From NCBI GenBank assembly GCA_038227875.1, contig JBBRPR010000083.1:1-32769 (forward strand): a stretch of DNA of 32,769 nucleotides. The letters run 5' to 3'. The notes under the pieces were generated by a model. That model saw only the letters and a program-made list of their open reading frames with translations, was not told the DNA's origin and did no database searches. Every line of letters starts with the position of its first letter. The first letter of the stretch is position 1. The position numbers and the translations under genes are program-made. Shown here piece after piece: positions 6,629 through 27,600 of the stretch. The stretch is from Planctomycetota bacterium. Its GTDB lineage: Bacteria; Planctomycetota; SZUA-567; H5-PLA8.

Positions 6629-9600
6629 ATGTTGCGCTCTGCCTGTGGAACGCGTCGAATGAGAATCGTGGGATGTGCGGCTGCTCTTCTGGCGCACTGC
6701 GTATTTAACGCAAACTCTGCAGAAACCATTCTACATTCCTTTCAAGGCCCCTATCTGGATGGCGGCGATCCGGCGAACGGTGTTATTCTGGGTAGCGACG
6801 GTGCGCTTTACGGCACAACCCGAAGTGGTGGAACACATGACCAGGGGACGATCTACAAGCTCAATGTCGATGGTACGGGCTACACGGTGTTGCGCAACTT
6901 TTTCGGATATAACTTAGCCAATCAGGCCACTGATGGTGCGGCTCCGGATGGTGAACTGGTTCAAGGCTCCGACGGTGCGCTCTACGGTACAACCGAACTG
7001 GGCGGCGCGAGTGGGAGCGGAACAATATTCAAGATCAACACCGACGGTACCGGATTCACCATCCTTCATGCGTTCCCCAGTACTCCCGACGATACGGATG
7101 GCTCGATGCCCATAGGTGGTCTGATCGAGGGTGCCGATGGAGCACTTTACGGTACTGCGTGGGGCGGAGGCTTCATCGGAGTAAACGAAGGCGGCATTGT
7201 TTTCAAAATCAGTAAAACGGGTGCTGGGTACACGGTCCTGCATTCTTTCGTTACCTCGCCCACCGACGGTTACGATCCGACTGGAAGACTGGTTCAGGGC
7301 AAGGACAACGTTCTTTACGGCACAACTATCAGCGGTGGCGCGTCTGGAGACGGGACGATCTTCAAAGTCGCCACAAACGGAACTGGATTCGCCGTGCTAC
7401 ACTCATTCAATGGTTCGGCCGGCGATGGTATAAATCCGTCCCTATCACCGCTCATTCAAGGTAGTGATTTGGCCCTTTACGGGGTGACAATGAACGGCGG
7501 CGCAAATAACAGGGGCACCATCTATAAAATCAGCACAGACGGAAGTAACTACTCCATCCTGCGTTCGTTTGTCAATAATCTGGTGGATGGCACCGCGCCC
7601 CAAGGAGCGCTACTTCAAGCGAGCGACGGTGCAATCTACGGCACAACCTCACAGGACGGTACGTTAGGGGGCGGAACGATCTACAAGATTAATACGAATG
7701 GAACTGGCTACGCTACTGTTTATCCGTTCACGCCGGCGAGTGGGGCTGTAGGGCCGCTCGCCGGACTAATACAGGGAAGCGACGGAACAATTTATGGAAC
7801 GAGTTCCGCCGGCGGATCTACGTTCAATGGTACAGTATTCAGCTTCAGCATTGCCGGCCCTTTGGATCACTTCGTTTTAAACTTTGCTTCTTCCGAGACC
7901 AACGCAACCCCGTTCTCCGGGACCAATACGATCACCGCTCAAGACGTGAACAACAACACGGTGCAGAATTTTGATGCTTCTACCAACAATGTAACGATCG
8001 TCGCCCTCTCGCCACTGACCGGTGGTGTTTCGGGTCTCGGAACGGGCGTCAACAACAAATTGAATAAGGCCTCCGACTTTATAAAGGGAGTTGCCAACCT
8101 CACCGCGCTGGGCATGAATTACACCGGGAACTCCGGCACCGGGACGTTCAAGGCGACGTCGGCGGATTCGAAGAGCGGCACATCCGGAAACGTAACCATC
8201 AATTCGGGCAGCCTCGATCATTTTAACCTGGTGCTCGCCAGTCCCCAAAGCAACGGTGTGGCATGCACGGGAACCAACACGCTTACGGCGGCGGACATTT
8301 CCAATAATACCGTATCAAGTTTCAATGCGTCGACCAACAACGTCACGCTCTCTGTGAACGTACCGTTGACAGGCGCGGTTTCTGGATTGGGCAGCGGCGG
8401 CAACAGCGTCTTGAACCGGGCTTCCGATTTCACCAATGGCGTCGCAAATCTGACGGCTTTGGGCCTGACGTATAACTGCAACGCGGCGACCGGAACGCTC
8501 ACCGCGACTTCCGCGAACGCGAAGACCGGAACGTCTGGATCGGTCACGGTCAATGTCGGCCCGCTGCATCATTTCCTCTGGTCGCTGGCCGGTGCCGAAA
8601 CGGATGGCGTCGCATTTGGCGGGACGAATACGTTGACTGCGTTGGATTCTGGGAACAACACCGTCACCGCGTTCGATGCCTCCGCAAATGCAGTCGTCAT
8701 TACCGCGGTTTCGCCGCTGACAGGCGTGGTCTCCGGCCTGGGCACGGGCGCCAACAATGTCTTGAATAAACCGACGGACTTCACCAACGGTGTCGCCAAT
8801 TTGACCGCTCTGGGCATGACATACGTGGGGAACGCCGCGACCGGAAAATTCCTGGCGACATCGGCAACCTCGAAGTCGGGCCAATCCGGCAACGTGGCGA
8901 TTGCAATAAATTCGCTCCACCACTTCGGTTTCGCTCTGGCGGCGTCAGAATCGACCGGCGTTCCGTTCGCTGGAAGCAATACGCTGACGGCTCAGGACAT
9001 TGGCAATAACGCAATCACGACATTCGATGCGTCGTTGGACAACGTTACCATTATCGCCAACGCACCGCTGACGGGAATCGTCACCGGTCTGGGCACGAGC
9101 AGTAACAATGTATTGAATCGAGCCGCGGACTTCGTTAATGGCGTCGCCGATCTGACCGCGCTGGGTTTGACCTATACCGGGAACATCCAAACCGGAACGT
9201 TCACCGCAAATTCCGCCAGTTCGAAGACTGGAACCTCCGGCCCCGTTGCAGTCAAGCTGCCGCAGACGATTACCTTCAACGCGCTCTCAAATGTGACGTA
9301 TGGAATTGCGCCGTTTCCGCTCACGGCGTCATCGGATTCCGGATTGACCGTGACTTTTTCGGTGGTTTCCGGCCCCGCGTCGATCACCGGAAATGTGCTG
9401 ACCATCACCGGTGCCGGTCCCGTCTCGGTGCAAGCCGACCAGAGCGGAGACGCCACGCACAGCCCCGCTCCGCCAGTAACTCGGCCGCTGACGGTTACGC
9501 GGGCGACGCTCACCGTAACCGCGAACGATAAAACAAAGGTCGCGGGAAATGCCAATCCGGCCTTCACGGCCACATTATCCGGATTTGTGAATGGCGATAC

Positions 9601-10993
9601 CAACTCCGTGGTCACCGGTTCGGGCGCATTCAATACGACGGCAACCGTCAACAGTCCACCGGGCACATATCCGATCACGGTCGCGGCCGGAACGCTTAAC
9701 GCTGCTAACTACGATTTTTCGGCGAGTACCTACGTCGGCGGTACGCTGACTGTGTTCACGAAACTGCTGCTCGCCAACGGACCGTCCGCTGCGCCGAATC
9801 CGGCGTTGATTGCGCAGACGGTACAATTCTCCTGCGGCTCGACGCTCGGCGGAGCGACGTTCTCATGGAATTTCGGCGACGGGACTGCGGTCGCAGGCGG
9901 AGTGACGGTCACCCATGCGTTCGCCGTGAAAGGTACATATTCTGTCGTCGTCACAGCCAGCGACGCGGTGAGCGGTCAAGTGCTTTCGGGAAGCGTGTCC
10001 GTAACGGTCAATCCGACAGTTGGGCCGCACTTTTCAAGCCCGCTCACGGCGAACGCGACGCAAGGCGCTGTGTACTCGTATCAACTCACGGCAACCGGAA
10101 CGGCGCCGATCGCGTATAGCGCCATAGGATTGCCCAGCGGATTGACGCTGGTTAACGACATGATCGCCGGCACGCCGACGGAATACGGCGAGACGGCGAT
10201 TCAACTTGGCGCATCGAACGCAGGTGGTTCAACGTCCGCGGTGCTGTTGCTGACGATCGCTCCGGCGGCAGGCACAACGGTCACGCCGCCAACGATTTCT
10301 TCTCCGCCCAATCCGCCCGCGCCAACGACGGCCGGTCAGCCGGTGACGCTAACCGGTGCGGCGGACTCCGCGCCCGGAGCGCTGATTGTCTATCTCTGGG
10401 ATTTTGGTGACGGCACAAGTGGCGTGGGTCCAACGGTTTCTCATACCTACACCGCCGCCGGCGTGTACATCGCAACGCTCACAATCACCGATGGCATGAC
10501 GACGACAACGCAGACTGTCGACGTGGCGGTAAATGCGGCTGGTCAGGCAGGAACGGGATTCAGCGTCGCCAAGGTCGCCATCAAGTTCAGCTTTTCGTCA
10601 GCGGCACACGATACGTTGACGATTTCCGGTACGATTCCCGTCAGCGCCGGCTTTTCGCCGCTGGATAAAAATGTCATCATCGCGATTGGTAAACTCGAAC
10701 ACCAGTCACTGCTGAACGCCAAAGGTGCGGCGAGCGACAAATCATTTACTCTGACGGGCAAATTGAAGAGCGGCGCGTTCACGGCATCGCCGGCGACGTT
10801 CACAATCACGCTGAAAAATCAGGATCTCTTCAAAAGCCTGTCGGACCTCGGTTTTTCTAATGTGACCGTGGCGAAGTCCGGAGCGAAAGTGTCGTTGAAC
10901 GTGATCGTTGCACTGGATGGGGTGGGCTATCAGCAATCAGTTCCGGTGACTTACACGGCTACCAAGGGCAAGTCCGGCGCGGCGAAGAAATAG
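6629..10993 (+). CDS. Large secreted/surface protein: 7 GloVer (Gloeo_Verruco) repeats, 4 x 117-aa repeats, MBG, PKD, putative Ig (He_PIG), PKD, C-terminal domain
   Basis: Signal-peptide-like N-terminus, seven DG..P...L.QGSDG.LYGTT..GG..GTIFKI units, MBG-like LTVTANDKTK..G.ANP, and two W.FGDG PKD motifs. Confidence 0.9.
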   Translation: MLRSACGTRRMRIVGCAAALLAHCVFNANSAETILHSFQGPYLDGGDPANGVILGSDGALYGTTRSGGTHDQGTIYKLNVDGTGYTVLRNFFGYNLANQATDGAAPDGELVQGSDGALYGTTELGGASGSGTIFKINTDGTGFTILHAFPSTPDDTDGSMPIGGLIEGADGALYGTAWGGGFIGVNEGGIVFKISKTGAGYTVLHSFVTSPTDGYDPTGRLVQGKDNVLYGTTISGGASGDGTIFKVATNGTGFAVLHSFNGSAGDGINPSLSPLIQGSDLALYGVTMNGGANNRGTIYKISTDGSNYSILRSFVNNLVDGTAPQGALLQASDGAIYGTTSQDGTLGGGTIYKINTNGTGYATVYPFTPASGAVGPLAGLIQGSDGTIYGTSSAGGSTFNGTVFSFSIAGPLDHFVLNFASSETNATPFSGTNTITAQDVNNNTVQNFDASTNNVTIVALSPLTGGVSGLGTGVNNKLNKASDFIKGVANLTALGMNYTGNSGTGTFKATSADSKSGTSGNVTINSGSLDHFNLVLASPQSNGVACTGTNTLTAADISNNTVSSFNASTNNVTLSVNVPLTGAVSGLGSGGNSVLNRASDFTNGVANLTALGLTYNCNAATGTLTATSANAKTGTSGSVTVNVGPLHHFLWSLAGAETDGVAFGGTNTLTALDSGNNTVTAFDASANAVVITAVSPLTGVVSGLGTGANNVLNKPTDFTNGVANLTALGMTYVGNAATGKFLATSATSKSGQSGNVAIAINSLHHFGFALAASESTGVPFAGSNTLTAQDIGNNAITTFDASLDNVTIIANAPLTGIVTGLGTSSNNVLNRAADFVNGVADLTALGLTYTGNIQTGTFTANSASSKTGTSGPVAVKLPQTITFNALSNVTYGIAPFPLTASSDSGLTVTFSVVSGPASITGNVLTITGAGPVSVQADQSGDATHSPAPPVTRPLTVTRATLTVTANDKTKVAGNANPAFTATLSGFVNGDTNSVVTGSGAFNTTATVNSPPGTYPITVAAGTLNAANYDFSASTYVGGTLTVFTKLLLANGPSAAPNPALIAQTVQFSCGSTLGGATFSWNFGDGTAVAGGVTVTHAFAVKGTYSVVVTASDAVSGQVLSGSVSVTVNPTVGPHFSSPLTANATQGAVYSYQLTATGTAPIAYSAIGLPSGLTLVNDMIAGTPTEYGETAIQLGASNAGGSTSAVLLLTIAPAAGTTVTPPTISSPPNPPAPTTAGQPVTLTGAADSAPGALIVYLWDFGDGTSGVGPTVSHTYTAAGVYIATLTITDGMTTTTQTVDVAVNAAGQAGTGFSVAKVAIKFSFSSAAHDTLTISGTIPVSAGFSPLDKNVIIAIGKLEHQSLLNAKGAASDKSFTLTGKLKSGAFTASPATFTITLKNQDLFKSLSDLGFSNVTVAKSGAKVSLNVIVALDGVGYQQSVPVTYTATKGKSGAAKK
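7856..9259 (+). repeat. Four tandem 351-nt (117-aa) intragenic repeats
   Basis: Units start at 7856, 8207, 8558 and 8909 (GPLDHF/GSLDHF/GPLHHF/NSLHHF ... F..GVA.LTALG..Y). Confidence 0.9.
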
Positions 10994-11839: not shown

Positions 11840-12005
11840 TACTAAAATTAGGTTCATTCGGGTTCGAATTCCCGCGGGTATATCACCTTTTTTCATAGGA
11901 GCACGTTTCGACGTGACAGGGAAAGCATTGGATCTGACGTAAAGTTTAGCTAGAGAAAAAGTCGGCACCGAATACACCACATGGGTAGCCGCCGATTTTG
12001 CCCAG

Positions 12006-13394
12006 CTATTCCATTCGCTGTAAAACCAGCCGCAATGTTTCGCGCAACGGCAGGCCCCGCAACGGATCGACCATATAGACAAACTCCACACGTCCGCGAA
12101 GGTACGCGGCGAAGTCGGGGCGTTTCTCGCGATTCTGACTCGCCAGACCGTGTTTCAACGCGTTGTGTAAAATCGCGCGAACCTCTCGGATGTATTCGCG
12201 CGAAACGGTGGGGCGATTGTTCACCGTCAGGCCGGTCACTTCCTGGCGCTGGGACTTGCGCATGACGTGGGTCTTTTTCGGATGCTCCGTGAAGCCTTCG
12301 TCCTGCAAAATCGAGCGGACGCTGCGCAGCAGTCTGCCGACAGCGCGGGTGTCTGTCCCAGAGAACGTGAGATCGTCAGCATAGCGCGTGTACGTGAATT
12401 CGTGTTTGTGCGCCAGGCCCGCGAGCCGCCGGTCGAGTCCCCGGCAGATCGCGTTTGTGATCGCGGGACTCGTGCACGCGCCCTGCGGCAGGGAACGTTG
12501 CGCCATCGCGACGTGATAAACTTTTCCTTCCACTTCCGCGGCAACGCGCGGCGGTTCGGTGCAGAGCAGCGCCATCACTGTCGCGACATGTTCGCAGTAC
12601 CCCAGGAATTCGAACAGCCCCTTCACGCGCGGAAAGCCGACCGTTGGGAAGAAATCCTTCAGGTCGAGATTAATCACGACCGGCTTGGCCGCATGCGGAC
12701 GCGCGTTGGTCAGGATCGAGCGTGACGGAACGAAGCCGTGTGCTTCCGGTTCGGTATTCAAGCGCGCGAGAATGTTGTCCTGAATCCATTGCTGTGCTTT
12801 GGCCAGCGACGGCTTGGGCGCGGAGATGTACCGGATTCCGCCGCTCTTTTTTGGCGTGCCGTAGCGATGGTAGTGAACCAGCGTCGCGCCGCGGCGATGA
12901 TAGGAAAGCCAGCGCAGGACGCCCACAGTGATGTTCATGCGCAACGCAAGTTCGACGCCGGTGTGAATGATCGGAAGTTTGCGTGCGTCCAACTTTACGG
13001 CATCGCTGAGCGCAGGCTGCAATCCGGCGCTGACGCCAATGCCAAGATGCAGGACCGAACTTTGCCGCGCGGCTTCCCAGATCTGCTTGCGTTTCAGGGC
13101 ATCGGCCAGGCGCTTTTCCTTTTTCTCCGCGCGCCGCTTGCGGCTTTCTTCCATGCGGCGCTTGTTTTCTGCCGCGAGCGCTTTTTCAGGATTCTTGGCG
13201 TTCGAATGCTGCTGCCGGAGTTTCGAGATCTGCTTTTCGATCGTGCTGCGTTCGTCGCGCTCCGCCGGTGGGTCTTCGGGAATGGGCACGCCGTACGGCC
13301 AGAAGCCGTGCGCCCGCATGCGTTCAAGCAGCATGTGTTCGTTGGCGTGAACGATGCGCTGATACAACCAGGCTTTTTCTTTGTCTGCTGCCAT
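12006..13394 (-). CDS. Retron-type reverse transcriptase with long basic/coiled N-terminal extension (Mx162-like)
   Basis: PKKSGG.R.I.AP, retron region X NARPH (NAxxH), DLKDFFP, LPQGACTSP, YTRYADDLTFS, and region Y RQEVTGLTVN (VTG). No maturase or endonuclease domain. Confidence 0.93.
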   Translation of the reverse strand: MAADKEKAWLYQRIVHANEHMLLERMRAHGFWPYGVPIPEDPPAERDERSTIEKQISKLRQQHSNAKNPEKALAAENKRRMEESRKRRAEKKEKRLADALKRKQIWEAARQSSVLHLGIGVSAGLQPALSDAVKLDARKLPIIHTGVELALRMNITVGVLRWLSYHRRGATLVHYHRYGTPKKSGGIRYISAPKPSLAKAQQWIQDNILARLNTEPEAHGFVPSRSILTNARPHAAKPVVINLDLKDFFPTVGFPRVKGLFEFLGYCEHVATVMALLCTEPPRVAAEVEGKVYHVAMAQRSLPQGACTSPAITNAICRGLDRRLAGLAHKHEFTYTRYADDLTFSGTDTRAVGRLLRSVRSILQDEGFTEHPKKTHVMRKSQRQEVTGLTVNNRPTVSREYIREVRAILHNALKHGLASQNREKRPDFAAYLRGRVEFVYMVDPLRGLPLRETLRLVLQRME

Positions 13395-13416
13395 GCTGTC
13401 GCCCAGACTTGAAATA

Positions 13417-13650
13417 TTATCGAAGGGGAGCGGCGGCGCTTACGAACATCCCACGGACGAGACCGGTCCACTCAAGTGGAACCGTGCCCTGCCGCAAGCC
13501 CGCGGGGCCCGAGGCCCTATCCAGCGCGGGCGGGCAGGGCACGGTTCCACGGGTGACGAACGGGCGCGTGATGAATGCCTGACACGTGAGCAAGCGCGGC
13601 GTAACGCCGCACAGTTTGCTAAGTCGTGCCGCCGCTTCCCTCCTCGATAA
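13417..13650 (-). ncRNA. Retron msr-msd non-coding RNA
   Basis: Flanking inverted repeats at 13417-13442 and 13620-13650. CUUA-G / G-UAAG junction gives a putative branching G at 13619. Two msr hairpins (13596-13610, 13577-13595). Long msd hairpin with a perfect 18-bp stem (13476-13493 / 13533-13550). Ends 22 nt upstream of the RT start codon. Confidence 0.85.
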
Positions 13651-15337
13651 AGGTTACAGAACGATCTTCGTCTGCAAGGCGACTCATATGAGCTAAACGC
13701 AACGACAAACTATGCTCGCACGGTCCCTTGGTCAACTGGTGTTTACGCGCAAATTCGCACGTACACGTCGCTTCGATGATGTGTCCCGCGTGGTCGACAT
13801 GAAGTTGCGGACGTACGCGGATTCCGTCCGCTCCTTTGGAACTGCCACTGAGTTTAAAGCCGGTGCTGACGGCCCGCCGCGCGATGATCTTCACGTTGCC
13901 GGCGTCATAGATCGCGCGCGCCGCCTTGGCCTGAAGATTCACTTCTTCGGCCGCCTGCGAGACCAGCGCCGCCGCCTGCTTGGCGGTGAACGGTTCGGCG
14001 AAGAGATCGCGATGCAGGAAGACGCCGCCGCTCAGGTCGCATATGGCACGCCCCACCTGGCACAGGTACGACAGCCCGCTGCGCGCCTGTTCGACGCCCA
14101 AGCCTGTCTGCATCGCAACGGCGCTGTCTGTGAGCGACTTGCTCTTTTTCAGGACATCGTAGACGCGCAGAAGCTCCGGCACACCCAGGGTCAGGCGCCG
14201 TGTCAGAAGATGAAATTTCGTATCGCCCGCCCAATCGTTGTCCGACCAGCCTGACAGCGCCAGCGTGAAGTTCACGGGGCCGAGGTCGAGCACATACATC
14301 GTCGGCATTCCGAATCCGGCCAGGTAGACGTCGATTCCGCGGCACGAGGGAATCAGTCGGCCCAGCATCCGCAATCGGTCGCGGCCCCACGTGCGAATGG
14401 ACTGCGCTTTCGCGCCGTCGTAAACGGATTTTGGCGAAAGCTCGATCGTGTGTTCCCAGGGTTCAAACACGACGCGGACGGGTTTGCCGGGCTCCAGTTC
14501 GTAACGCATTGCACGCGGCGATTTCTTGGCCTTGTGTGTGCGCAAGAACTGACAGATCGCGTGCAGATCCGCAGGCTCAAGTCGCAAGCGCGTGAGACTG
14601 AGTGTCATCGCGCTGTGAACCTGTAGGAAGCCCATCAGCCAACTGTCGGGCAGGTCGATTTTCTTTTCGTGGTGGGCGCTCTCGTTGAGCGCCACCGTGA
14701 AGCCGCCCGGGTCGACGGAAAAACGCGTGCGCCGGTACGAACGCATGCGCTCCAGTTCGCCGTGTAATTTCGCGCTGAAGTCGATGTTGGTCGTGCCGCA
14801 CTCCAGTTGCTCCACCTTGCTGAAAATCTCGTACTTGGCGCCGACGCGCGCGTAGCTGCTCTCATCGCGCGAAAACGCTTCGAAGAAAATCTCGCCCGGA
14901 TGGACCGTGATGACGGGGTCCAGAAAATACGAGAGCTCGTATTCGTTCTCGTAAATGTGATTGAAGAATTGCAGCCGCGCGCGGTGGAAGGGCTTCAGCC
15001 GTACGTTGCGCGCCTCATCCAGGTCGCTCAACCGCGCTTCGAGCTGTTCGAGCTGCTGGCGGACCTGCTGCGCCTGAATGCCGATCGTGGCGAGGAACTT
15101 GCGATCCTGCTCCGCGAGCCAGGCGAAAAACGCCGTGCGGTCCGGCGGGCGGTATTTGAAATCGCTGACGACGACCTGGTAAAGCGCCGCAAGTGCTTCG
15201 CGCAGGAGCAGTGGCTGGCCGAGTTCGCCGTGGAAAAACGTCGCCTCGCGCAGCGTGTTGGAGGCAAAGGCCATGTTCGCGGAGTTCAGTCCGTTGACGA
15301 TGCCGCTGCGGCCCGCGTATTTGTACTCAGCCTGCAT
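13619..15337 (-). CDS. SWIM zinc-finger protein (retron-associated)
   Basis: C-terminal CTC-x11-CEH SWIM motif, DPVITVHP..IFFEAFSRDESSY, TTNIDFS, a coiled segment, and a wHTH-like segment before the SWIM. Start overlaps the upstream gene by 11 nt. Confidence 0.88.
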   Translation of the reverse strand: MQAEYKYAGRSGIVNGLNSANMAFASNTLREATFFHGELGQPLLLREALAALYQVVVSDFKYRPPDRTAFFAWLAEQDRKFLATIGIQAQQVRQQLEQLEARLSDLDEARNVRLKPFHRARLQFFNHIYENEYELSYFLDPVITVHPGEIFFEAFSRDESSYARVGAKYEIFSKVEQLECGTTNIDFSAKLHGELERMRSYRRTRFSVDPGGFTVALNESAHHEKKIDLPDSWLMGFLQVHSAMTLSLTRLRLEPADLHAICQFLRTHKAKKSPRAMRYELEPGKPVRVVFEPWEHTIELSPKSVYDGAKAQSIRTWGRDRLRMLGRLIPSCRGIDVYLAGFGMPTMYVLDLGPVNFTLALSGWSDNDWAGDTKFHLLTRRLTLGVPELLRVYDVLKKSKSLTDSAVAMQTGLGVEQARSGLSYLCQVGRAICDLSGGVFLHRDLFAEPFTAKQAAALVSQAAEEVNLQAKAARAIYDAGNVKIIARRAVSTGFKLSGSSKGADGIRVRPQLHVDHAGHIIEATCTCEFARKHQLTKGPCEHSLSLRLAHMSRLADEDRSVTFIEEGSGGTT

Positions 15338-17867
15338 GCGATGCCTCCGTTTGAGGCAGCGTGACAGACGGAACGGCCTGCGGGTGCGCGAGCTTTATGC
15401 GAACGAGCGCTTCGAGCACTTCTTCGAAGTCGGCGCGCCCCTTTAGATGAAGAAATTCCGTGAGGATGCTGGACGCCACTTCCGCCTGCTTCGCGTCCTC
15501 GGTTCCGCGCCGCCCCAGCAGGCGGATGATGCCCTGCTTGAGCGCGCGGTGCGGGTAGTAATCGAAAATGCCGGTGCGACAGAAGCCTTTCAACTTTTCC
15601 AGCGCTTCAGCACCAGGCGGCAGGTGGCGTTCAATCAACTGCAGCGCGTATTTTCGAACGTTGGGGTGCGGATGCTGAATCAGCCGCGAGATCAGATCCG
15701 AGACGTCGTAGCGTTCGAGATGCTTCCGCGCCAGCTCGATGCCCATGTTTTGAACGTCGACGCGGTTCGAATCGATCATGCCGATCAGGCCGTTGTAACC
15801 GACATCCGAACCGGCCAGGCGCGTGCGAATCAGTTCGAAGGAGATGGCGCGCGTGTCCGGCCAATTGCTTTCGGCCAGCACGAGCAGCACCGACGGATCC
15901 TTCGCCCAGAGTTTTTCGGCCGCGCGAATCATGGCGTGAGCCGCCTGTCGGACGGCGGCGAGGTTGTGCTGCGCGAACAGTGTCAGCTTTTCCAGCCCAA
16001 TGCGCTCCGCGGCTTCCGGATGCAAGGCCAGCAGCGCCGATGCAACCGACAGGACCGCAATCGACTCGCTGGTGAGCAGCGTCAAAATCTCATCGAGGGA
16101 CAGGAGTTTATCGATCTGAGTCAGGAGCAGTTCGCGGCCGACTTTCGCGTACGCTTCGTGCCATTGCGGCGACGATTCCGGTGCGCGCAATTTCGCCAGG
16201 ACTCGGTCGGAGAGTTCCAGGCGGAAGCTGTGCTCATCAGGAGCATGCGCGATGACGAGCTCCGCGGCGAGCAGCCGCGCCAGGCTGTTCTCGACGCCGA
16301 GAAATGCGACGATGCGCGTTACGTCCGTGCACCACAGAGGCGCGGTTTCGCGCAACCACTTCTGCGCGAGCCCCAGCACGGCGGGGTGCTGCACATGACA
16401 TAGCCGCTCGAGCAGAGCCCAATCGGGCTTCGCCGGATCGAAGCGCCGCGACAGTTCTTCCAGCACAAGCTCTGCGGTCTTTTCGTATTCGACATGAAGC
16501 AGCGGAAGAAGTTCGTTCAACGACGCGGTCTGAAGCACCGCGCGGTGGCGCTGCGTGATCGCCTGATACGCAAACGCCTGGACTTCCGCGAGTTTCGCGG
16601 CACCGAGCACGCGCAGGTAAGCACGCGGCTGCGCGTCCCAGAGCTGGGGAAAGCGCTCTTCGCGAACGGACGACGGTGCAGCCGCGGCGGCGGAGGAGCG
16701 GAGTTTCGTGCGCAGATTCCGGCCGTCGATTTTCAGCCGCAAACTCGCGCCGTAGAGGATCTGGTTGAGCAGGTAGCAGCGCGCGAAAGCGCCGAACTTA
16801 CCCATGGGATGGTCGGCGTCCGCCTGGGAATAGTGGATCAGCACTTCCGCGGCGGATCGGCTGTACAAGTCCGGGCGATAACGCGCGATTTCGCGCAGGT
16901 AGCGCCAGCACAGCCGGCGGATGTAACTGCGCGTGCCGAAGCCGAAGATCCGGATGCTTCGCTGCACGCCGTCGTAGCCGGACTTTACGTTGGCGAGCGT
17001 GGACGTCGCGGTGCGGCCGTGATATTCGATCGTGTGGCTCAACCAGCCGAACGTGGCGAAGTCGCTGCGGAGCATTGAGCGCTTCAATACGCTCTTGGCG
17101 TAACGCCAGATGAAGGCCTGTTCGAATGGTGCGTGGCCCAGCGCGGTGACGGCCGCGCCGACGGCGACGGGCGTGCCCCATTCGTAGAGGAAGTCGGCAT
17201 ACAAGCCGAGGAACATCTTGTCGGAGCCGTTCAGCGCCAACGCCAGATTCGCCGCGGATTCGACGGCCTTCTGCGGACTCTCGTCGGCGCTGTTCAGCGC
17301 GTCGCGCACTTTCGGGCCGAGTTGTTCAAGGGTGCGCTGTCGCGCGGCCGCGAGTCCTTCGGCATCGCCCAGATTGCGCAGCGCTTCCACAGCCGAACGT
17401 CTTCGCGAGAGCAGCTTACGCGTGGCCTGTTCGCGCAGCACAGGAATCGCCCGCGCGTCGCCCATGCGGCCCAACGCGTCCATGATCGAGCAGGTATCGT
17501 CTGTTGCCTGCGGCACGCGCGCGATCAGTACTTCGACGTAATCTTTGCAACTCTTCAGTCCCAGTAGACGCGCGGCGCGGGCACGAACTTTGGCCTTCGA
17601 CGATTGGAGCGCGTGGAGTGCCGCGTGAACTCCGGACTGGAGATAACCCTGCGCCTGAAGTATGCGCGAAACTTCCGCGAGCCGGTCGGCGAGCTCTCCG
17701 GTGGGGTAGGGGCCGTACGCGGTGCTGTTGCTAAGCTTGCCGGATTTCGGGCCGCGCGCCACCTGGATCAGAAACTGATCCTTGTTGCCCCACGATTCCT
17801 GCACGGAGATTACGGCAATCCGGTCCGTGTTGGTGGGATTATAAAAATGTGTGGCCGGTGGAGGCAT
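15327..17867 (-). CDS. HEAT/ARM-repeat protein (retron-associated)
   Basis: HEAT-like units (VRARAARLLG, DALGRMGDARAIPVL, RRSAVEALRNLGD, AVRQAAHAMI, HPHPNVRKYAL). All-helical character over about 750 aa. Confidence 0.82.
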   Translation of the reverse strand: MPPPATHFYNPTNTDRIAVISVQESWGNKDQFLIQVARGPKSGKLSNSTAYGPYPTGELADRLAEVSRILQAQGYLQSGVHAALHALQSSKAKVRARAARLLGLKSCKDYVEVLIARVPQATDDTCSIMDALGRMGDARAIPVLREQATRKLLSRRRSAVEALRNLGDAEGLAAARQRTLEQLGPKVRDALNSADESPQKAVESAANLALALNGSDKMFLGLYADFLYEWGTPVAVGAAVTALGHAPFEQAFIWRYAKSVLKRSMLRSDFATFGWLSHTIEYHGRTATSTLANVKSGYDGVQRSIRIFGFGTRSYIRRLCWRYLREIARYRPDLYSRSAAEVLIHYSQADADHPMGKFGAFARCYLLNQILYGASLRLKIDGRNLRTKLRSSAAAAAPSSVREERFPQLWDAQPRAYLRVLGAAKLAEVQAFAYQAITQRHRAVLQTASLNELLPLLHVEYEKTAELVLEELSRRFDPAKPDWALLERLCHVQHPAVLGLAQKWLRETAPLWCTDVTRIVAFLGVENSLARLLAAELVIAHAPDEHSFRLELSDRVLAKLRAPESSPQWHEAYAKVGRELLLTQIDKLLSLDEILTLLTSESIAVLSVASALLALHPEAAERIGLEKLTLFAQHNLAAVRQAAHAMIRAAEKLWAKDPSVLLVLAESNWPDTRAISFELIRTRLAGSDVGYNGLIGMIDSNRVDVQNMGIELARKHLERYDVSDLISRLIQHPHPNVRKYALQLIERHLPPGAEALEKLKGFCRTGIFDYYPHRALKQGIIRLLGRRGTEDAKQAEVASSILTEFLHLKGRADFEEVLEALVRIKLAHPQAVPSVTLPQTEASHAG

Positions 17868-17880
17868 GTGCAGCCTTTAG

Positions 17881-18621
17881 CTATTTGAAGTCGTCAAAGT
17901 CTTCTTTTGATTTTACGTTGTCGTCGTCCTCTTCCTCGTCATCGTCGTCGTCACTGTTGTGCGGAACCGGGCTCTTGGTCGCGGAGGCTTGAACGGGCTT
18001 CGTCGCTTTGCTGGAACCGGAGACCGGTCCGAGTTCGCCCAATTCATCCTGCAGGGCGTTGCGCATGGCGATGAAGTCGTCGAATTCGCGCCGTCGGAAC
18101 AAATTGTAGCCGGTCCACATCAGGTCGGCGCAGATCTCGACGGGGACTCGTCCCGTGTTGGCGCCCAAGCCCGGCAGCGCGACGGAGCGGATCGAGCCGG
18201 GTTCGGCGGCATTCTGCATGTGAATCACCTGGAACGCCGCGGCGCAGGCGAGCGCGACGTTCATCGTGTCGCTGATGTCTTCCGACGAGGTGATCATCGT
18301 CGGGGTTGAGATCAGAAAGCGCGGCTGCGGCGCTTCTGTCGGCGTGCAGATCGCATGTCCGACTGGAAGAATCCCATTATATTGGCGGTGAATGCCCTGC
18401 TGCAGCCGCGTTTCGATCTTGTCGCCGAGATGCTTCTTGATGATGCCGTCCAGCCCGCCGTCCATGCTGCCGCGCGAATTGGTCGGGGACACCCATGCGC
18501 TGACAGGCTGCGCGAGCATGGAGCCTTCGATGATCTGCACTTCCGGGTTTTCTTCAAAGGTAGAGCGCCAAGCCTTGATCATCTTCGGATTGATGTCGAC
18601 GAGCGTGACGGAAACCAGCAT
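17881..18621 (-). CDS. Macrodomain protein (ADP-ribose binding/hydrolase) with acidic tail
   Basis: VSPTNSRGSMDGGLD, LISTPTM and SVALPGLGANTG macro signatures. RBS AAAGGAGG. D/E-rich C-terminus. Confidence 0.92.
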   Translation of the reverse strand: MLVSVTLVDINPKMIKAWRSTFEENPEVQIIEGSMLAQPVSAWVSPTNSRGSMDGGLDGIIKKHLGDKIETRLQQGIHRQYNGILPVGHAICTPTEAPQPRFLISTPTMITSSEDISDTMNVALACAAAFQVIHMQNAAEPGSIRSVALPGLGANTGRVPVEICADLMWTGYNLFRRREFDDFIAMRNALQDELGELGPVSGSSKATKPVQASATKSPVPHNSDDDDDEEEDDDNVKSKEDFDDFK

Positions 18622-18639
18622 GGCGCGAATCCTCCTTTA

Positions 18640-20067
18640 TCAGCACGAAAATTCAGCAAGATACTCCATGCGCTGCCGGTCAGTGCTGTAGACGACGTAT
18701 TCGTCGTCCGCGAATTCCGACTTGGATAGAAGCTTGCTTCGCACGCCATGGCAACTGTCGTATCCCGGCGGTGGTGCTTCAAGTCCGTACGTAATCTTGT
18801 GGTATTGCTTGATCTTTCCCAGGCTCACGCGTGCGACGGTCAAAAACCGGGTGCCGCTTTTGCCGGCCGAGGTGTAGAAGGCGCTGGTACAGGCCGCATC
18901 GCCAAAATAGATCCCGTTGCCGAGCCAGCCGGCGTCCGTGCGGTTGACGCCCATGCTGACGACAATCTTGGGCAGCAGAATTCCGCGCGAAAGCAACCCG
19001 ACCCAATTCTGAATGCGCGAGCCGTGGAAGAGCAGCCGCTGATTACCGATCTTGTCGTCGAACTTCTCCCATTCGCCGCCGCGGCGCACGGTAAAGAGGT
19101 TCTTCACTTTGATGTTCTTCGATTTAATCTGGCTCTTAATGATGTGATCTTCGATCTCATGGTAGATACCCGACGACTTGGGCACCGGCGCGATATCGCA
19201 TTTCAAAGACAGGTACTGCGCATCGATCTGCTCGTTGTAGAGCACGTTTCCGGCTTCGCCGTTGACCTGGAGCATGTCTTTCATCAACTGCAGCGTTTCC
19301 TGCTTCTGCTGGAAGGCGTCCATGGTGTTGATCACGGCGCCGGCAATCGCGCTTCGTGTGCGGCCGATGCGATGCGGGATGACCGTGTAGAATTCCCCGG
19401 ACAGGTCTTCCATTTTCGACGCCTGCTGCTTGTTGGATTTGAACAGGTCGTACAGTTCGAGCAGGATGGCTTCGCCTTTTTCGATCTGACCGATGGTGAG
19501 AACGCCCAGCGGCGTCTCAATGCCGTTGGCGGTGATCTTCGCGCTGACGCTGCTGGTGAGCGCGTTGGTTGCTTCTGAGAACAGGTAACGGACAAGACTC
19601 TGGATGCTGCTGTCAAGTCCCAGCGACTTCACCGCCGGAACGGGCTCGCCCGCGGCTTCTTTGGCCTTGGCGAGTTTATCGAGCGTCTTGCTGTCCACTT
19701 CGCCGACGCTCGCCCCGCGCGCCTTTTGCGAGCCAATTTTACTCGAGGCCAGCGCCAGCTCTTTGTAACCCTTGCGCGGCGATGTTTTTTCGCGGTAGAT
19801 CGAGAGGTAGTTGCTGTCGGCTTCGACCTGATTGTCGAAGTAGCGGCATTCTTTCTGGCCGCTGTTGGGATTCGTTTCCAGGTCGTCGGTGCGGCCGTAG
19901 TGCGTGAAGACGCGGAACTTTGCGCCGCCGCGGTGCAATTCTATCGCGTAATATTTGTTGCGGTTGGTTTTGAGATCCGTGACTTGGAGCACGGCCTTTT
20001 TAACGATTTCAAAGTCGTCGGGAAATTCCGGCTCGCCGGATTCACCGTGTTTCCATGCTTCTGCCAT
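18640..20067 (-). CDS. Poly(ADP-ribose) polymerase (WGR + regulatory helical domain + catalytic domain)
   Basis: NKYYAIEL..VFTHYGR..IYREKT (WGR), PLGVLTIGQI..G / LSGEFYTVIPH (PARP_reg), and LLFHGS, GNGIYFGD, SAFY, DEYVVY (H-Y-E triad). RBS GGGGAG precedes ATG 20067. Confidence 0.95.
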   Translation of the reverse strand: MAEAWKHGESGEPEFPDDFEIVKKAVLQVTDLKTNRNKYYAIELHRGGAKFRVFTHYGRTDDLETNPNSGQKECRYFDNQVEADSNYLSIYREKTSPRKGYKELALASSKIGSQKARGASVGEVDSKTLDKLAKAKEAAGEPVPAVKSLGLDSSIQSLVRYLFSEATNALTSSVSAKITANGIETPLGVLTIGQIEKGEAILLELYDLFKSNKQQASKMEDLSGEFYTVIPHRIGRTRSAIAGAVINTMDAFQQKQETLQLMKDMLQVNGEAGNVLYNEQIDAQYLSLKCDIAPVPKSSGIYHEIEDHIIKSQIKSKNIKVKNLFTVRRGGEWEKFDDKIGNQRLLFHGSRIQNWVGLLSRGILLPKIVVSMGVNRTDAGWLGNGIYFGDAACTSAFYTSAGKSGTRFLTVARVSLGKIKQYHKITYGLEAPPPGYDSCHGVRSKLLSKSEFADDEYVVYSTDRQRMEYLAEFSC

Positions 20068-20117
20068 AAAAAGCTCCCCACGATGGCAAAATCTCAAAAT
20101 TGATGAATATCCCGCGC

Positions 20118-20145
20118 ATCGTAGTCTGATATGCACGAAGCGCAA
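20118..20145 (-). promoter_or_regulatory. Possible sigma70-type promoter for the PARP-to-RT operon
   Basis: TTGCGC-N16-TACGAT on the minus strand, preceded by an A-rich tract, in the 108-nt gap between the ARH and PARP genes. Confidence 0.4.
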
Positions 20146-20175
20146 GATTTACTTTTTCATTTTGCAGAAGCTTAA

Positions 20176-21165
20176 CTACATCTCGAATAAAAATTCGCCG
20201 CGCGGTGCCACATATTTACTCTCTTGAGTCGCGGGCTTCTGAGGTTCTTGCGCGAACGCAAAGAGCTTCTGGGAGAAATCGGTAATCAGATCCGCCATCA
20301 CTACGTTCTTTCGCCAGCTTTCGGGAATAGCGTCGACTCCGTAAAAGGCGCCGGCCAGACTTCCGTACACGGCGCCGGTCGAGTCGGAATCGTCGCCCAG
20401 ATTGACGACCGCGATGGCACCGTCCTCAAACGAATCCGTGGTGTGAAAGGCCCAGAGCACCGCCTCCAGCGTGTTGACGCAGTAGCCGCCGCCATTGATC
20501 GCTGGAGGTTGCTTCTCCTTGAACGAGCCATTGGCGATCGCGTGAATTTTTGGATGCAACGCATCCGGATTCCAACCGCCGAGCGGCGAGTAGCAGGCGC
20601 TGAGCAATTCGTCTTTCGACTTGCCCTGAAGTGCACCGACGATCAATCCCCCAAAATAGTGGCAGGCATGGGTCGCCTCAATGGCGCCGTGCGTGGTCTC
20701 GCTGCTTTCCCCGGACAACTGAAGACACTTCTCGACGTCGTTGGCGTAAGCGAGAGGCACGGGTGCGAGCCGCATCAGCGAGCCGTTGCCGCCGCCATTT
20801 CCCGTGGCCCGCAGATCGCCGTTCGCTCTGAAATCCCCCAGTGCGCGAGCCGTGCCGACGCCAATGTCGAAACAATGTCCGGTGGACGAAAGATGGCCTT
20901 CCTTCCACCAGCGGCAGTAGCGTTCGAGCTGATCTTTGGGATCGAACCCGCGCTGCTCGATCAGGCTTTCCGCGAGACACAAGGCCATGCTTGTGTCGTC
21001 CGTCCAATAACCGGCGTCAAGGTTGTAGGTGCCGTGAGCTCTAAAACCATCGCCGCGCTTGAACGGCGGAAAACTTCCCGGGCTCTTGAATTCACACCAA
21101 GCGCCCAGCGCGTCACAGCAGGCGAGCCCCAACAGGCTCCCGAGGTAGCGTTGTAACGTTTCCAT
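20176..21165 (-). CDS. ADP-ribosylglycohydrolase (ARH/DraG family)
   Basis: GLA..DALG, WTDDTSM, DIG, GNGSLMRLAP, TTH and NLGDDSDSTGAVYG.LAGA.YG motifs. Confidence 0.95.
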   Translation of the reverse strand: METLQRYLGSLLGLACCDALGAWCEFKSPGSFPPFKRGDGFRAHGTYNLDAGYWTDDTSMALCLAESLIEQRGFDPKDQLERYCRWWKEGHLSSTGHCFDIGVGTARALGDFRANGDLRATGNGGGNGSLMRLAPVPLAYANDVEKCLQLSGESSETTHGAIEATHACHYFGGLIVGALQGKSKDELLSACYSPLGGWNPDALHPKIHAIANGSFKEKQPPAINGGGYCVNTLEAVLWAFHTTDSFEDGAIAVVNLGDDSDSTGAVYGSLAGAFYGVDAIPESWRKNVVMADLITDFSQKLFAFAQEPQKPATQESKYVAPRGEFLFEM

Positions 21166-21698
21166 GCCGCGACATGGTACTTCCAACCCGTAGTTCAGCA
21201 ACCTAGGGTTGAACCTTGTAGCAGCATGTACTTGCTACCTAAAAAGTCACCATGACGCTGCGGCAAATCCGAAGCCGCGCGGGCCGCAAGTTGCCAGCGT
21301 CGCCTGGCCGCTGACTATCGTCCGTGCGTTTTCAAAATGGCACGTGTCCCAGTTTCCAGCACACCGTCACTGAAGCGGCGCACCATGTCTTGCATGTGTC
21401 GCGGGCATTCCGTGAAGTTCTTAAAGCCGAGCATGCGCGCAGCGCCGTCCAGATCGCGTTGCGCTGAGTTTGGCGCACTCGATTCGGTGTTTTAGCCCGT
21501 GGCCGTGTGCGCCCCGTCTGTCGCGACGGCGTGCGCGCAGCGTGCTGGATCAGACCGTAAACGACGCCCGCGAATGAAAAAACGAAATATCGAACGGCGC
21601 GCCATTAAGTCGCTCGATGATCTCGACACCGAATGGCGCGCCTGGCCGGAAACGCGCGGGTTGGTCGACAAGCCTGCGAAGTGATGCGTCGGGGGAAT

Positions 21699-24663: not shown

Positions 24664-27600
24664 ATGCTGACGTCGAAATTCCGTTTGGACATAAACGCGT
24701 TACTGCTGCTGCTGTTGACGGTCTGCTGGCAGCTGCCGGTTTCCGCTTCGGCGTTGAGCGTGACGGTGACGCCCTCCGCTCCCAGCGTTCCGCGTTACGA
24801 TGTTTACGAACTGACGCTGGGGCACACGGCCAATTACACCTATCCGAACGATGACGTGACCATCGCGGCGAGCTTTACCGCACCCTCGGGAAAGACGTTT
24901 TCCGTGGGTGGATTTTTCTATGACGTGAATGCGTGGAAGGTGCGCTTCGCACCCAACGAGACGGGCACTTGGAGTTGGTCCTTAAATTTTACGGCGCCCG
25001 ACGGGAGCTTCGCGTCGACGGGAAATTTTTCATGCGCGGCCTCCGCCCGCTCTGGCTTTGTGCGGCTTCATCCCACCAGTTCGTATCGCCTGATCACGGA
25101 AGACACGGGAAAAGCGTTTTTTCCCATCGGCATTCAGCAAGGTTATGAAGGTCTGCCGAACAATCCGAGCGTGGGCGGCCTGAGCTGGTTTCTTCCCCCC
25201 ACCGGCAATCCCGGCAGCACGAATAATTCCGTCTATCCCGTGAGCAGCGACACGTATTTTGCTCCGTTTGCGCAGGCCGGCTTCAACCTCTATCGCGACA
25301 ATGGTGAATCACAGAACGTGCTCCTGGATTTCAATACATCCGCCAGCGGCAAGAATCAGTATGACATACAGCGGAGCAAGAACACCGATCTGTTGTGCAG
25401 CGATTCGCATCGCCACCAGCTCAAATTGATGCTCTGTTTTTCAGCCAACCCGCATTTTTATGTGGGCGATACCTGGGATCTTTCCAATCCAGCGGTAAAG
25501 CAGGCCTGGCTGCGCCATCACCAATATTGCATTAACCGCTACGGTGCCTATGTGGATATCTGGGAGCTGGCGAACGAATGGGGCCAGCGCGGCGAACCCA
25601 CACAGGCGTATTACGACACGGTGACGCAGTACGTACACAACAACGATCCGTACCAGCATTTGATCACGATCAGTTATCAGCCCACCCATCCGCAACCCCT
25701 GATCGACATCGGTGGACCGCATTATTACATCGGCTCCTCAAATCTGGATCTCGATGATCAGATCGTCAATGGAACTTATGGACTCGTGCACAACACATTC
25801 CTCAACAAGCCCATCATCATCAGCGAGGTCGGCAACAACGCGCCGATTGGCGACAATGATATGCCTCTGGAGGAACGCTATCGAATATTCCTGTGGACGT
25901 CGTTCTTCAACCGTGCCGCGATCATTCCCTGGGACGGTTACAACGGTAGCGGCCAATCCGGTACCGGCGTGGCCAACCTTTATGTCGGTTCGACGCAGCG
26001 CGGGCACGCCTCGAAATTCAGCGCGTATGTATCGGATTTCGACCCCAATGCGATTCCGGTAAGCGTCACGATGAGTCCAGCCAACGCCATGCGCGGATAT
26101 GTGCTCGGTAGCAATCAATGTGTCGGCGGCTGGTTCACCCACACGACCAGTCACAGCACCACTCTTTCCGGAGCGACGGTGACGCTCAACATCCCCGCCG
26201 CGGGAATGGCGGGTCAATGGATCGATCCTGCATCCGGAAATGTGCTCCAATCTTTCAGCCCGGCGAGTGGAACACAGACGTTGAACGTACCCGCCTTCGC
26301 TTCCGACATTGCCTTGAAGATCCTGGGCGGTGGCGGACCGCTTGCGCCATCCATTACAACACAGCCGCAAAATCAAACCGTCGCCGCCGGTCAGACTGCC
26401 ACATTCACCGTCGCAGCGTCAGGCACCGGGCCACTCGCTTTCCAATGGAAGAAGAACGGCAGCCCGATTGGCGGCGCGACCAGCGCGTCGTATACAACTC
26501 CGGCGACCACGACCACGGATAGTGGAGCCGCATTTTTGTGCGTCGTCACCAACGCCGTGGGCAGCGCATCCAGTAATGCAGCGCTCCTCACCGTGAATGC
26601 GACGGCCGTTGCGCCCAGCGTTACGACTCAACCGGTGAATCAAACTGTTGCGGCTGGTCAGACCGCGACGTTCAGCATTGTTGCTGCGGGAACTGCGCCG
26701 TTGACCTATCAGTGGAAGAAGAACGGCAGCGCGATTGCCGGCGCGACCAGTGCCTCGTATACGACTCCAGCGACGACGACGGCGGATAGCGGAGCCGCAT
26801 TTCTGTGCGTCGTCAGCAATGCTGTTGGCAGTGCCACCAGCATTGCTGCGATCCTCACGGTCCTCGACCCGGGGCCATCCATTACGTCTCCCGCCTCCGC
26901 CGTCCCCAACCCCGCGACGGTGGGACAATCCGTCGCGTTTACGGTTGCGGCCAATGATCCTGATGGAGATACGCTGTTGTATCGTTGGAGCTTCGGCGAC
27001 GGGTCCACAGGCTCGGGAAATTCGATATCGCATGCGTACAGCGCTGCGGGAGTGTTCGCCGCATCAGTCACAGTCGACGATGGCAAAGGCACGACTGTTG
27101 TCAGCAACGTGAACGTCTCCGTTACGACCGCCACAACTTCATCGGCGTTGAAAATCAATTTTCAACCCGCCTCCGCGATTGTGCCCGCAGGCTATCTTGC
27201 GGATTCCGGAGCGGTCTACGCTGCTCGAGGCAATGGGCAGAGCTACGGATGGGACATCGATCTCTCCGCGCAAACATCGAAGCGCAATCTCAATTCCGAT
27301 CCACGTCTGGACACCGCGGTTTTTACTTGGAATACGACCCGCAGTTGGAGCTGCGCGCTGGCCAACGGTAATTACCTCGTCACTCTCGCCAGCGGCGATG
27401 CCCAATGGTATCACGGCCAGAACTGGGTGGAATTGCAGGGCGCTGTGGTCATTAACAATGTGGCATCGGCGCCAAATCAATTCCTCGTACTCAGCAATGT
27501 TCCGGTAACCGTTTCGAATGGAAAGTTGACGGTCCGCATCGGCAATGGCTCCTGGGAAACGGCACTGAATTATGTCGATATCACGCCGGTCTCTGGCGGC

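Follow-up and report, generated by a model that had tools for sequence, protein, structure and literature searches.

Type XIII retrons (reverse transcriptase (RT) clade 10; Mx162, Mx65, Sa163, and Ne144) combine an RT with a SWIM protein and a HEAT-repeat protein, a classification that reportedly goes back to Mestre and colleagues in 2020. The same three protein profiles occur in the locus described here, which occupies approximately positions 12006-21201 of the Planctomycetota contig JBBRPR010000083.1, with all genes on the minus strand; the window, i.e., the whole stretch of DNA analyzed, is 32,769 nt long. As in type XIII retrons, SWIM motifs, a WGR-like N-terminus of the HEAT protein, and an msr-msd RNA with a1/a2 arms upstream of the RT gene are present. 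Unlike canonical type XIII systems, the clade of the window adds a PARP with WGR, helical (HD), and catalytic (ART) domains, a macrodomain protein (Macro) and, often, an ARH, and its RTs form a clade of their own. From the observed parts, their conservation, their linkage, and their co-occurrence across genomes, the best explanation is that the locus belongs to a distinct sub-clade of type XIII retrons working with an ADP-ribosylation arm (PARP, Macro, and often ARH); judging from sequence comparison, the PARP-linked loci are apparently an undescribed type XIII subtype, spread over four phyla. The features of the locus are the following.

20176-21201, minus strand: ARH (Pfam ADP_ribosyl_GH, 5.9e-71).
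18640-20145, minus strand: PARP, the presumed writer, with WGR, helical regulatory, and catalytic domains (Pfam WGR 5.6e-10, PARP_reg 3.2e-19, PARP 3.9e-28).
17881-18621, minus strand: Macro, an eraser or reader of ADP-ribose (Pfam Macro, 4.5e-12).
15327-17867, minus strand: HEAT/ARM repeat protein, the type XIII accessory protein (HEAT_2 3.5e-10; PADLOC WGR_XIII 6.5e-97, HEAT-ARM_XIII 4.4e-68).
13619-15337, minus strand: SWIM protein (PADLOC SWIM_XIII 1.4e-177; no Pfam match).
13422-13643, minus strand: msr-msd non-coding RNA (ncRNA), identified by fold z-score and covariation.
12006-13394, minus strand: retron RT, type XIII, clade 10 (RVT_1 1.4e-21; PADLOC RT_XIII 2.3e-160).

All six genes are minus-strand open reading frames (ORFs), co-oriented as claimed in the preliminary description of this DNA, and the coordinates reproduce its spacings of 18 nt between PARP and Macro and 13 nt between Macro and HEAT, followed by an 11-nt overlap of HEAT and SWIM. 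The same description had noted that Myxococcus-type (type XIII) retrons associate with ARM/SWIM/WGR proteins, in agreement with the matches to RT_XIII, SWIM_XIII, and WGR_XIII/HEAT-ARM_XIII. PADLOC thus recognizes the type XIII core; none of its profiles, those of retron effectors included, matches PARP, Macro, or ARH. A scan of the locus for promoters and terminators gave the same counts as shuffled sequences. The remark that no retron with a PARP effector was known stands for PADLOC and for the literature searched: full-text searches yielded no paper that connects retrons with PARPs, as judged partly by the titles and abstracts of the matches listed. The words PARP, macro, and ADP-ribos are absent from the available main text of PMC7736814, whose supplementary cluster tables might list such neighbors, and from the accessible part of PMC13712802; the available text of PMC9967889 treats retrons only in general; and the accessible portions of two surveys of bacterial PARPs (PMC4245714, PMC5966428) mention no retron or reverse transcriptase beside the PARPs.

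The tie between the two sets of genes was analyzed from both sides. On the PARP side, an alignment of 28 relatives yielded 80 loci in species-representative genomes, which were searched by tblastn with the six window proteins. Here, PARP-Macro followed by retron genes is seen in 56 of the 80 loci: full PARP-Macro-HEAT-SWIM-RT arrays in 38; PARP-Macro-HEAT-SWIM in 10, seven of them cut at or near the contig end and three having at least 4.5 kb more with no RT match; and PARP-Macro-HEAT in 8, which reach the contig end. The other loci contain PARP-Macro only (18/80) or PARP only (6/80), so that a Macro gene follows PARP in 74 of the 80. Of those loci, 52 have 7 kb or more of downstream sequence; in this subset, retron genes are present in 38, PARP-Macro only in 12, and PARP only in 2, and the genes downstream of the PARP-Macro-only loci are mutually unrelated, with no alternative conserved partner. 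One of the PARP-side loci (L062) is the same contig as G126:C161, which has the whole array in common with the window (63/62/40/60/59% identity); its flanking genes differ from those of the window, and it carries no ARH.

On the SWIM side, an alignment of SWIM proteins gave 80 metagenome loci, ascertained independently of PARP, which form two classes by identity to the window SWIM, a closer one of 30 (47-66%) and a more distant one of 50 (39-45%). Eighteen loci of the high-identity class extend far enough upstream, and 15 of them (two being near-identical contigs) carry PARP and Macro; of the other three, L108 and L109 have Macro without PARP, and L107 lacks PARP, Macro, and RT. In the distant class, PARP or Macro is seen in none of the 50 loci. 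Recurrence of PARP and Macro genes beside homologous RTs, which the preliminary description had proposed looking for, is thus observed in both surveys.

The RT tree (98 rows) is consistent with this distribution: one branch with SH-aLRT support of 98 separates 49 PARP/Macro-linked RTs from 35 unlinked ones, where unlinked means neither PARP nor Macro given enough upstream DNA, 14 rows cut upstream were left unlabeled, and the groups were partly ascertained via PARP itself. A smaller RT tree shows the same single split with support 94. The nearest RT outside the PARP clade, that of L101 (G104), belongs to a HEAT-SWIM-RT locus with a Ser/Thr kinase gene upstream of HEAT. This kinase (11846-13732) has an MshEN domain, matches PADLOC PD-T4-6 profiles (2.5e-68), and may serve the same core as a different effector arm.

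The association extends beyond adjacent genes. Of ten genomes with retron-less PARP loci, seven hold a PARP-clade SWIM elsewhere, at 57-63% identity. In these seven cases the split arm is a complete HEAT-SWIM-RT set that carries the clade-specific msr motif and has neither PARP nor Macro nor ARH in its vicinity; five genomes were checked for further PARPs, and all have a single close one. Since matching HEAT-SWIM-RT genes lie elsewhere in seven of the ten genomes, a single transcript for all genes is, by this gene arrangement, not required by the system. Similarly, among 301 Myxococcota genomes, a close PARP is found in five, and a PARP-clade SWIM in exactly the same five; 11 further genomes have only a distant SWIM and no such PARP. 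In the five co-occurring genomes the arms are 14, 40, or 84 kb apart or on different contigs; three of these genomes had previously been reached via PARP loci and two are new, and the relatives are not independent.

These data bear on the simplest alternative, namely that PARP, Macro, and ARH are mere neighbors of the retron with no functional tie to it. Such a reading could draw on the PARP-Macro pairs and lone PARPs that occur without an adjacent retron, and on other WGR-PARPs of the same phylum unlinked to a retron (G126:C695, G291:C758); it has to face the gene order recurring in most PARP loci, the presence of PARP and Macro in 15/18 close and 0/50 distant SWIM loci, the single clade of linked RTs, and the complete overlap (5/5) of the PARP and SWIM clades among the 301 genomes. 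We regard it as extremely improbable and already contradicted by the comparative data, by which the tie of the ADP-ribosylation genes to the retron is not due to chance. The coupling of retron and ADP-ribosylation genes proposed in the preliminary description held up in each of the comparative tests.

ARH was surveyed in a second round of searching that used every ARH-family protein found. Of the 39 complete arrays with flanking sequence at either end, 24 have an adjacent ARH-family gene, located upstream of PARP on the same strand in 4 (as in the window), downstream of RT on the same strand in 14, and in the opposite orientation in 6. No adjacent ARH-family gene is seen in any of 81 non-PARP type XIII loci or of 24 PARP(-Macro)-only loci. 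Being varied in placement and found only beside both arms together, ARH can be described as a frequent, movable, optional member. The preliminary description had listed ARH as a part of the system; by this survey it is an optional part, more often downstream of RT (20) than upstream of PARP (4).

The core proteins fit the type XIII pattern. RT_XIII is the top scorer among 69 PADLOC RT profiles for the window RT, the translation of which contains YADD and a long N-terminal extension. Its closest solved relatives are the RTs of Ec86 and Ec67, then Kva2 and Ec78; the copy of the structure database searched contained no solved structure of any type XIII retron protein. In the alignment of SWIM proteins, the conserved residues are D140, D148, E153, D186, and E224, and, in the zinc finger, C525, C527, C540, and H542. 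The window SWIM hence fits both patterns published for the SWIM protein of type XIII (cluster 114_1), the acidic, DEDE-type motif Dx7[D]x4Ex30-32Dx37E and the zinc-finger pattern CxCx12CxH, as given in the available text of PMC7736814. By these matches of profiles and motifs, the core is a type XIII retron.

The window HEAT protein aligns with canonical WGR-HEAT proteins (hhalign probability 100, E 2.7e-84 overall), its residues 8-80 corresponding to their WGR region. The closest non-PARP relatives have HEAT proteins of 950-1130 amino acids; the window HEAT is approximately 200 residues shorter, the difference being an internal gap. The Pfam WGR domain is detected in five of seven of these longer proteins tested (L145 and L146 reach the cut-off, whereas L148, L088, and L144 score lower) and not in the window HEAT. 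The idea that a WGR domain had moved from HEAT to PARP was considered and dropped, since residues 8-80 of the window HEAT still align with the WGR region; no particular relationship is seen between the WGR of PARP and that fused to HEAT (25% identity over 81 amino acids, E 0.07). As the HEAT N-terminus aligns with WGR, the system contains two modules of WGR type, of which that on the scaffold is degenerate and that on PARP canonical. Tautonia sociabilis GM2012 is the sole cultured strain in which the full array was seen; its HEAT gene (L040, 12251-14785) is interrupted by an in-frame stop, which leaves ORFs of 327 and 504 amino acids. The contig is labeled with approximately 5x coverage, and the interruption reflects either a pseudogene or an error in sequencing.

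Analysis of the spacer between SWIM and RT supports the structured msr-msd claimed for this position. The predicted fold has -141.8 kcal/mol, compared with -108.4 kcal/mol for shuffled sequences (z -6.97; none of 200 shuffles as good). RNAalifold on 36 loci (the window and 35 related spacers) yields 44 consensus pairs, 33 of which show compensatory double changes in at least one sequence. The structure is closed by an a1/a2 stem of 10 bp and further consists of an msr hairpin that hardly varies, a conserved inner stem, and a long msd hairpin that is variable in sequence. The a1 arm (13643-13634) lies within the 3' end of the SWIM ORF, and the a2 arm is at 13431-13422. The SWIM stop codon TAG (13621-13619) falls within the conserved UUAGC directly after a1, so that the ncRNA indeed overlaps the stop, as had been proposed. 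The branching G of retrons is located in an AGC, and we take the G of UUAGC at 13619 to be the candidate.

No Rfam family matches the msr-msd region. The msr hairpin motif is found directly 3' of SWIM in PARP-clade loci, all seven split arms included, and, compared with canonical type XIII retrons, it is specific to the PARP-linked clade. Some PARP-clade loci contain two or three copies of this hairpin between SWIM and RT (L033 at 6854 and 7293; L042 at 16691 and 16940; L119 at 3050 and 3286; L190 at 9841, 10129, and 10393), which suggests tandem duplicated ncRNAs; the SWIM-RT spacers of these four loci are longer due to the multiplied motif.

In the PARP protein, the WGR, PARP_reg, and PARP domains all score above the Pfam cut-offs. 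Its database entry begins 26 codons later and has 475 amino acids, and the true start is likely the inward one. In the numbering of the 475-residue form, an alignment of 28 relatives shows no variation at H348, Y387, and E456; from the motif context, we take these to be the H-Y-E triad. The protein thus resembles PARP1/2/3 and the PARP of Herpetosiphon aurantiacus in combining WGR, helical, and catalytic domains with H-Y-E. Unlike known DNA-dependent PARPs, it has neither zinc fingers nor BRCT and is encoded with a retron. Among solved structures, the best relative of the helical and catalytic domains is human PARP4 (1.6e-50), and the matches to PARP2, PARP1, and PARP3 (approximately 1e-26 to 1e-21) run from the WGR domain onward. 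PARP4 itself is not known to have a WGR domain. These two domains of the window protein are far closer to PARP4, the PARP of the vault particle, than to PARP1/2/3, which hints at a specific bacterial-eukaryotic relationship.

A protein search with PARP gave 861 database relatives at E<=1e-10, the top 120 being 64-71% identical. On PLSDB plasmids there is no close relative, the best match having 33% identity. The two unlinked WGR-PARPs of the same phylum (L004 8209-9807 in G126:C695; L005 2-1720 in G291:C758) are only 22-36% identical to the window PARP, and that of G291:C758 has a lysine-rich, histone-H1-like N-terminus.

The predicted structure of Macro (pLDDT 82.6) is closest, by Foldseek, to Poa1p/Ymx7 (4.7e-11) and to DarG macrodomains (1.4e-6, 5.2e-6); further fold matches are macroH2A, Af1521, and MacroD2. 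The ADP-ribose-binding motifs N-x6-GGLD and PGLG..TG are kept across 75 sequences. They are compatible with catalysis; readers of the macroH2A type are likewise among the fold matches. The C-terminus (17881-18030, minus strand) is a disordered acidic tail, whose terminal DFDD is kept in at least 90% of the 75 sequences; it is reminiscent of the acidic docking tails known, e.g., from SSB. In ARH, an ADP-ribosylglycohydrolase of the DraG/ARH family, the ADP_ribosyl_GH domain covers positions 1-286 of 287, and the best solved relatives by sequence are the bacterial ADP-ribosylglycohydrolases 2cwc (7.9e-71) and 6dre (2.8e-50), followed by DraG and ARH3.

The order of these genes is comparable to DarTG, which defends against phages according to the accessible part of PMC11825919: in both, the writer gene is directly followed by a macrodomain gene, and the model of the window Macro is close to DarG macrodomains. 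Unlike in DarTG, the writer of the window is a PARP-family enzyme rather than DarT, and the pair is tied to a retron. Unlike DarG, the window Macro has no C-terminal DarT-binding domain, and a short helical extension with the acidic tail stands in its place.

The characterized retron toxin-antitoxins (Sen2/St85 RcaT, Ec86, Ec48, Ec78) follow the same logic of RT plus multicopy single-stranded DNA (msDNA) plus effector, and the window RT is related to the RTs of Ec86, Ec67, and Ec78; the effector candidates differ, being here a PARP with dedicated erasers. In retrons, msDNA commonly restrains the effector until phage factors disturb it, a scheme outlined in the available text of PMC9967889. PARPs of the WGR-HD-ART type are activated by DNA ends, and macrodomains and ARHs remove ADP-ribose. 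The reading towards which we lean, by a modest degree, is that the msDNA complex is the sensor and a DNA-activated PARP the output, with Macro and ARH limiting leakage and resetting the system. The RT would make msDNA, held by the SWIM and WGR-like HEAT proteins. In the intact complex PARP would be kept autoinhibited via its helical domain. Infection, by cleavage, modification, or displacement, would disturb the msDNA or the complex and open a DNA end or junction to the WGR domain of PARP, which would then fire. ADP-ribosylation of protein or nucleic acid, together with NAD+ consumption, would halt growth or phage replication, and Macro and ARH would strip basal or mistaken modification. For this locus, we infer DNA activation of PARP, NAD+ depletion, and abortive infection; a bacterial WGR-PARP, that of Herpetosiphon, is DNA-dependent according to the available text of PMC4245714. 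In a minority of genomes the PARP-Macro pair survives with no retron, which suggests that it does not kill on its own, in line with an autoinhibited enzyme.

The roles could be reversed, i.e., the ADP-ribosylation arm might tune the retron by modifying msDNA ends or the RT, SWIM, and HEAT proteins, with Macro and ARH reversing these changes and the true output residing in SWIM or HEAT, as it does in ordinary type XIII retrons. In favor of this, the core comprises every part of the canonical type XIII set, and systems of the canonical kind operate with no PARP; PARP1-3 are able to ADP-ribosylate DNA ends, and the closest folds of Macro include DarG, an ADP-ribose remover acting on DNA. Distance matrices for 35 complete arrays also show PARP to be less tightly co-inherited with HEAT, SWIM, and RT (r 0.78-0.81) than the core genes are mutually (0.89-0.94), a correlation that shows co-inheritance and is not independent proof of interaction. 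However, some genomes retain the PARP-Macro pair by itself, in better agreement with an autonomous module than with a pure regulator, and a PARP1-like enzyme with the full H-Y-E and an autoinhibitory helical domain resembles a switchable output. On balance, we consider regulation of the retron by PARP unlikely.

The predicted structure of the SWIM protein (pLDDT 76.6, pTM 0.75) comes from one prediction on an alignment of 17 sequences that included non-PARP type XIII proteins. Residues 34-365 of the model superpose on whole PCNA protomers (VIA-align Z 21.5, root-mean-square deviation 2.7, 232/244 residues; Foldseek 1.9e-9) and on a 9-1-1 subunit (Z 21.1). The clamp-like part (approximately 34-365) contains a helical insert (approximately 67-135) and is followed by a winged helix and the C-terminal SWIM zinc finger. 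A profile search of SWIM against solved structures gave only weak winged-helix matches (E 0.03-0.4); weak sequence matches to TFE and eS25 at residues 367-432 support the winged helix. The protein is hence predicted to contain a two-domain clamp protomer fold of the PCNA/9-1-1 type, probably general to type XIII SWIM proteins, given that the alignment for the model took in non-PARP members. Unlike PCNA/9-1-1, the window SWIM has 8-15% identity to them, a helical insert of approximately 70 residues, and a fused winged helix and SWIM finger; the likeness is that of a protomer fold in a predicted model. In the literature the type XIII SWIM protein is viewed as possibly transposase-derived; the predicted structure is not transposase-like. 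A literature search for retrons and PCNA returned no paper on a clamp-like retron protein.

The clamp-like fold allows a further version of the mechanism, in which the locus would be a signaling machine that mimics DNA damage on self-made DNA: msDNA held by the clamp and a WGR-like scaffold, a PARP whose own WGR reads the DNA state and which fires once phage factors cut, modify, or displace that DNA, and erasers resetting the signal. We see this as rather unlikely, a shade less so than regulation of the retron by PARP. If it were true, a eukaryote-like set of clamp, WGR sensor, PARP writer, and macro/ARH erasers would act in bacteria as a single retron-based immune module, and the PARP4-like catalytic domain would hint at an evolutionary tie to eukaryotic PARPs of RNA-protein particles.

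A third alternative dispenses with immunity: the locus may be a housekeeping or stress module of large-genome soil bacteria, acting in DNA damage signaling, development, or dormancy with msDNA as a cofactor. Hosts of the 55 retron-linked loci that have a locus title are Myxococcota (25, plus 2 labeled delta-proteobacteria), Planctomycetota (18), Pseudomonadota (6), and Acidobacteriota (4), i.e., mostly Myxococcota and Planctomycetota with genomes of 8-12 Mb, and the PCNA/9-1-1-like fold, WGR, PARP, macro, and ARH together mirror eukaryotic DNA-damage signaling. There are no defence neighbors in the window, and type XIII retrons show moderate correlation with 16S and possible domestication, as far as the available text of PMC7736814 goes. 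On the other hand, the spread is patchy: among 401 sampled Planctomycetota genomes, a PARP domain is found in 3 and SWIM_XIII in 25, and the PARP-linked system occurs in 5 of the 301 Myxococcota genomes. In the RT tree and likewise in the PARP tree, members of different phyla intermix, as expected for mobile defence genes; the flanks differ between relatives; and the arms have been repeatedly lost and split. Patchiness, interleaving, differing flanks, and the loss and splitting of arms characterize mobile accessory systems rather than housekeeping genes. In addition, to our knowledge every retron type tested so far is defensive. We therefore consider a non-immune role improbable.

Several observations weigh against the msDNA complex as phage sensor and PARP as its output. 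The literature searched contains no demonstrated anti-phage role for any type XIII retron, and type XIII inheritance is described as partly vertical in the available text of PMC7736814, with domestication possible. The window flanks contain no other defence genes by Pfam and PADLOC. Among the close SWIM relatives, L109 is Macro-HEAT-SWIM-RT without PARP, and L107 is HEAT-SWIM alone; in genome G125 the array sits on a contig of 8 kb that ends within Macro, and the assembly gives no match to PARP. In the PARP tree, PARP-only and PARP-Macro-only loci are scattered among the linked ones, forcing at least 6 changes, and in the remaining three of the ten genomes with retron-less PARPs, SWIM is either only 39-40% identical (G406 and G407, Kofleriaceae) or absent (G409); PARP can thus persist without the retron. 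The partial ascertainment of the RT groups through PARP, given above, belongs here as well.

Bacterial PARPs have been known for more than ten years without a clear role, and one large, widespread clade of them is now placed in a defined multi-gene system. Type XIII retrons, Mx162 included, have no mechanism in the literature searched; the PARP arm, with its measurable output (ADP-ribose, NAD+), offers a handle on what the SWIM/HEAT/msDNA core senses. The predicted clamp fold would shift the model of the type XIII SWIM protein from a transposase-derived nuclease to a clamp-like holder of DNA. A switchable PARP under programmable reverse-transcribed DNA could serve as a tool.

The genome of the window contains, on another contig (G000 contig C4, L006 8255-13602), one more type XIII retron, which belongs to a different subtype and is accompanied by neither PARP nor Macro nor ARH. 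Its RT is 50% and its SWIM 34% identical to those of the window, and its HEAT-ARM_XIII protein has 595 amino acids.

Besides ordinary metabolic genes, the flanks of the locus in the window contain a gene for a sigma-70/TPR protein and two for giant PKD/Ig proteins. The PKD/Ig proteins, of secreted type, bracket the region at 6629-10993 (plus strand, 1454 amino acids) and 24664-28836 (plus strand, 1390 amino acids), and the latter also contains a DUF5060 domain.

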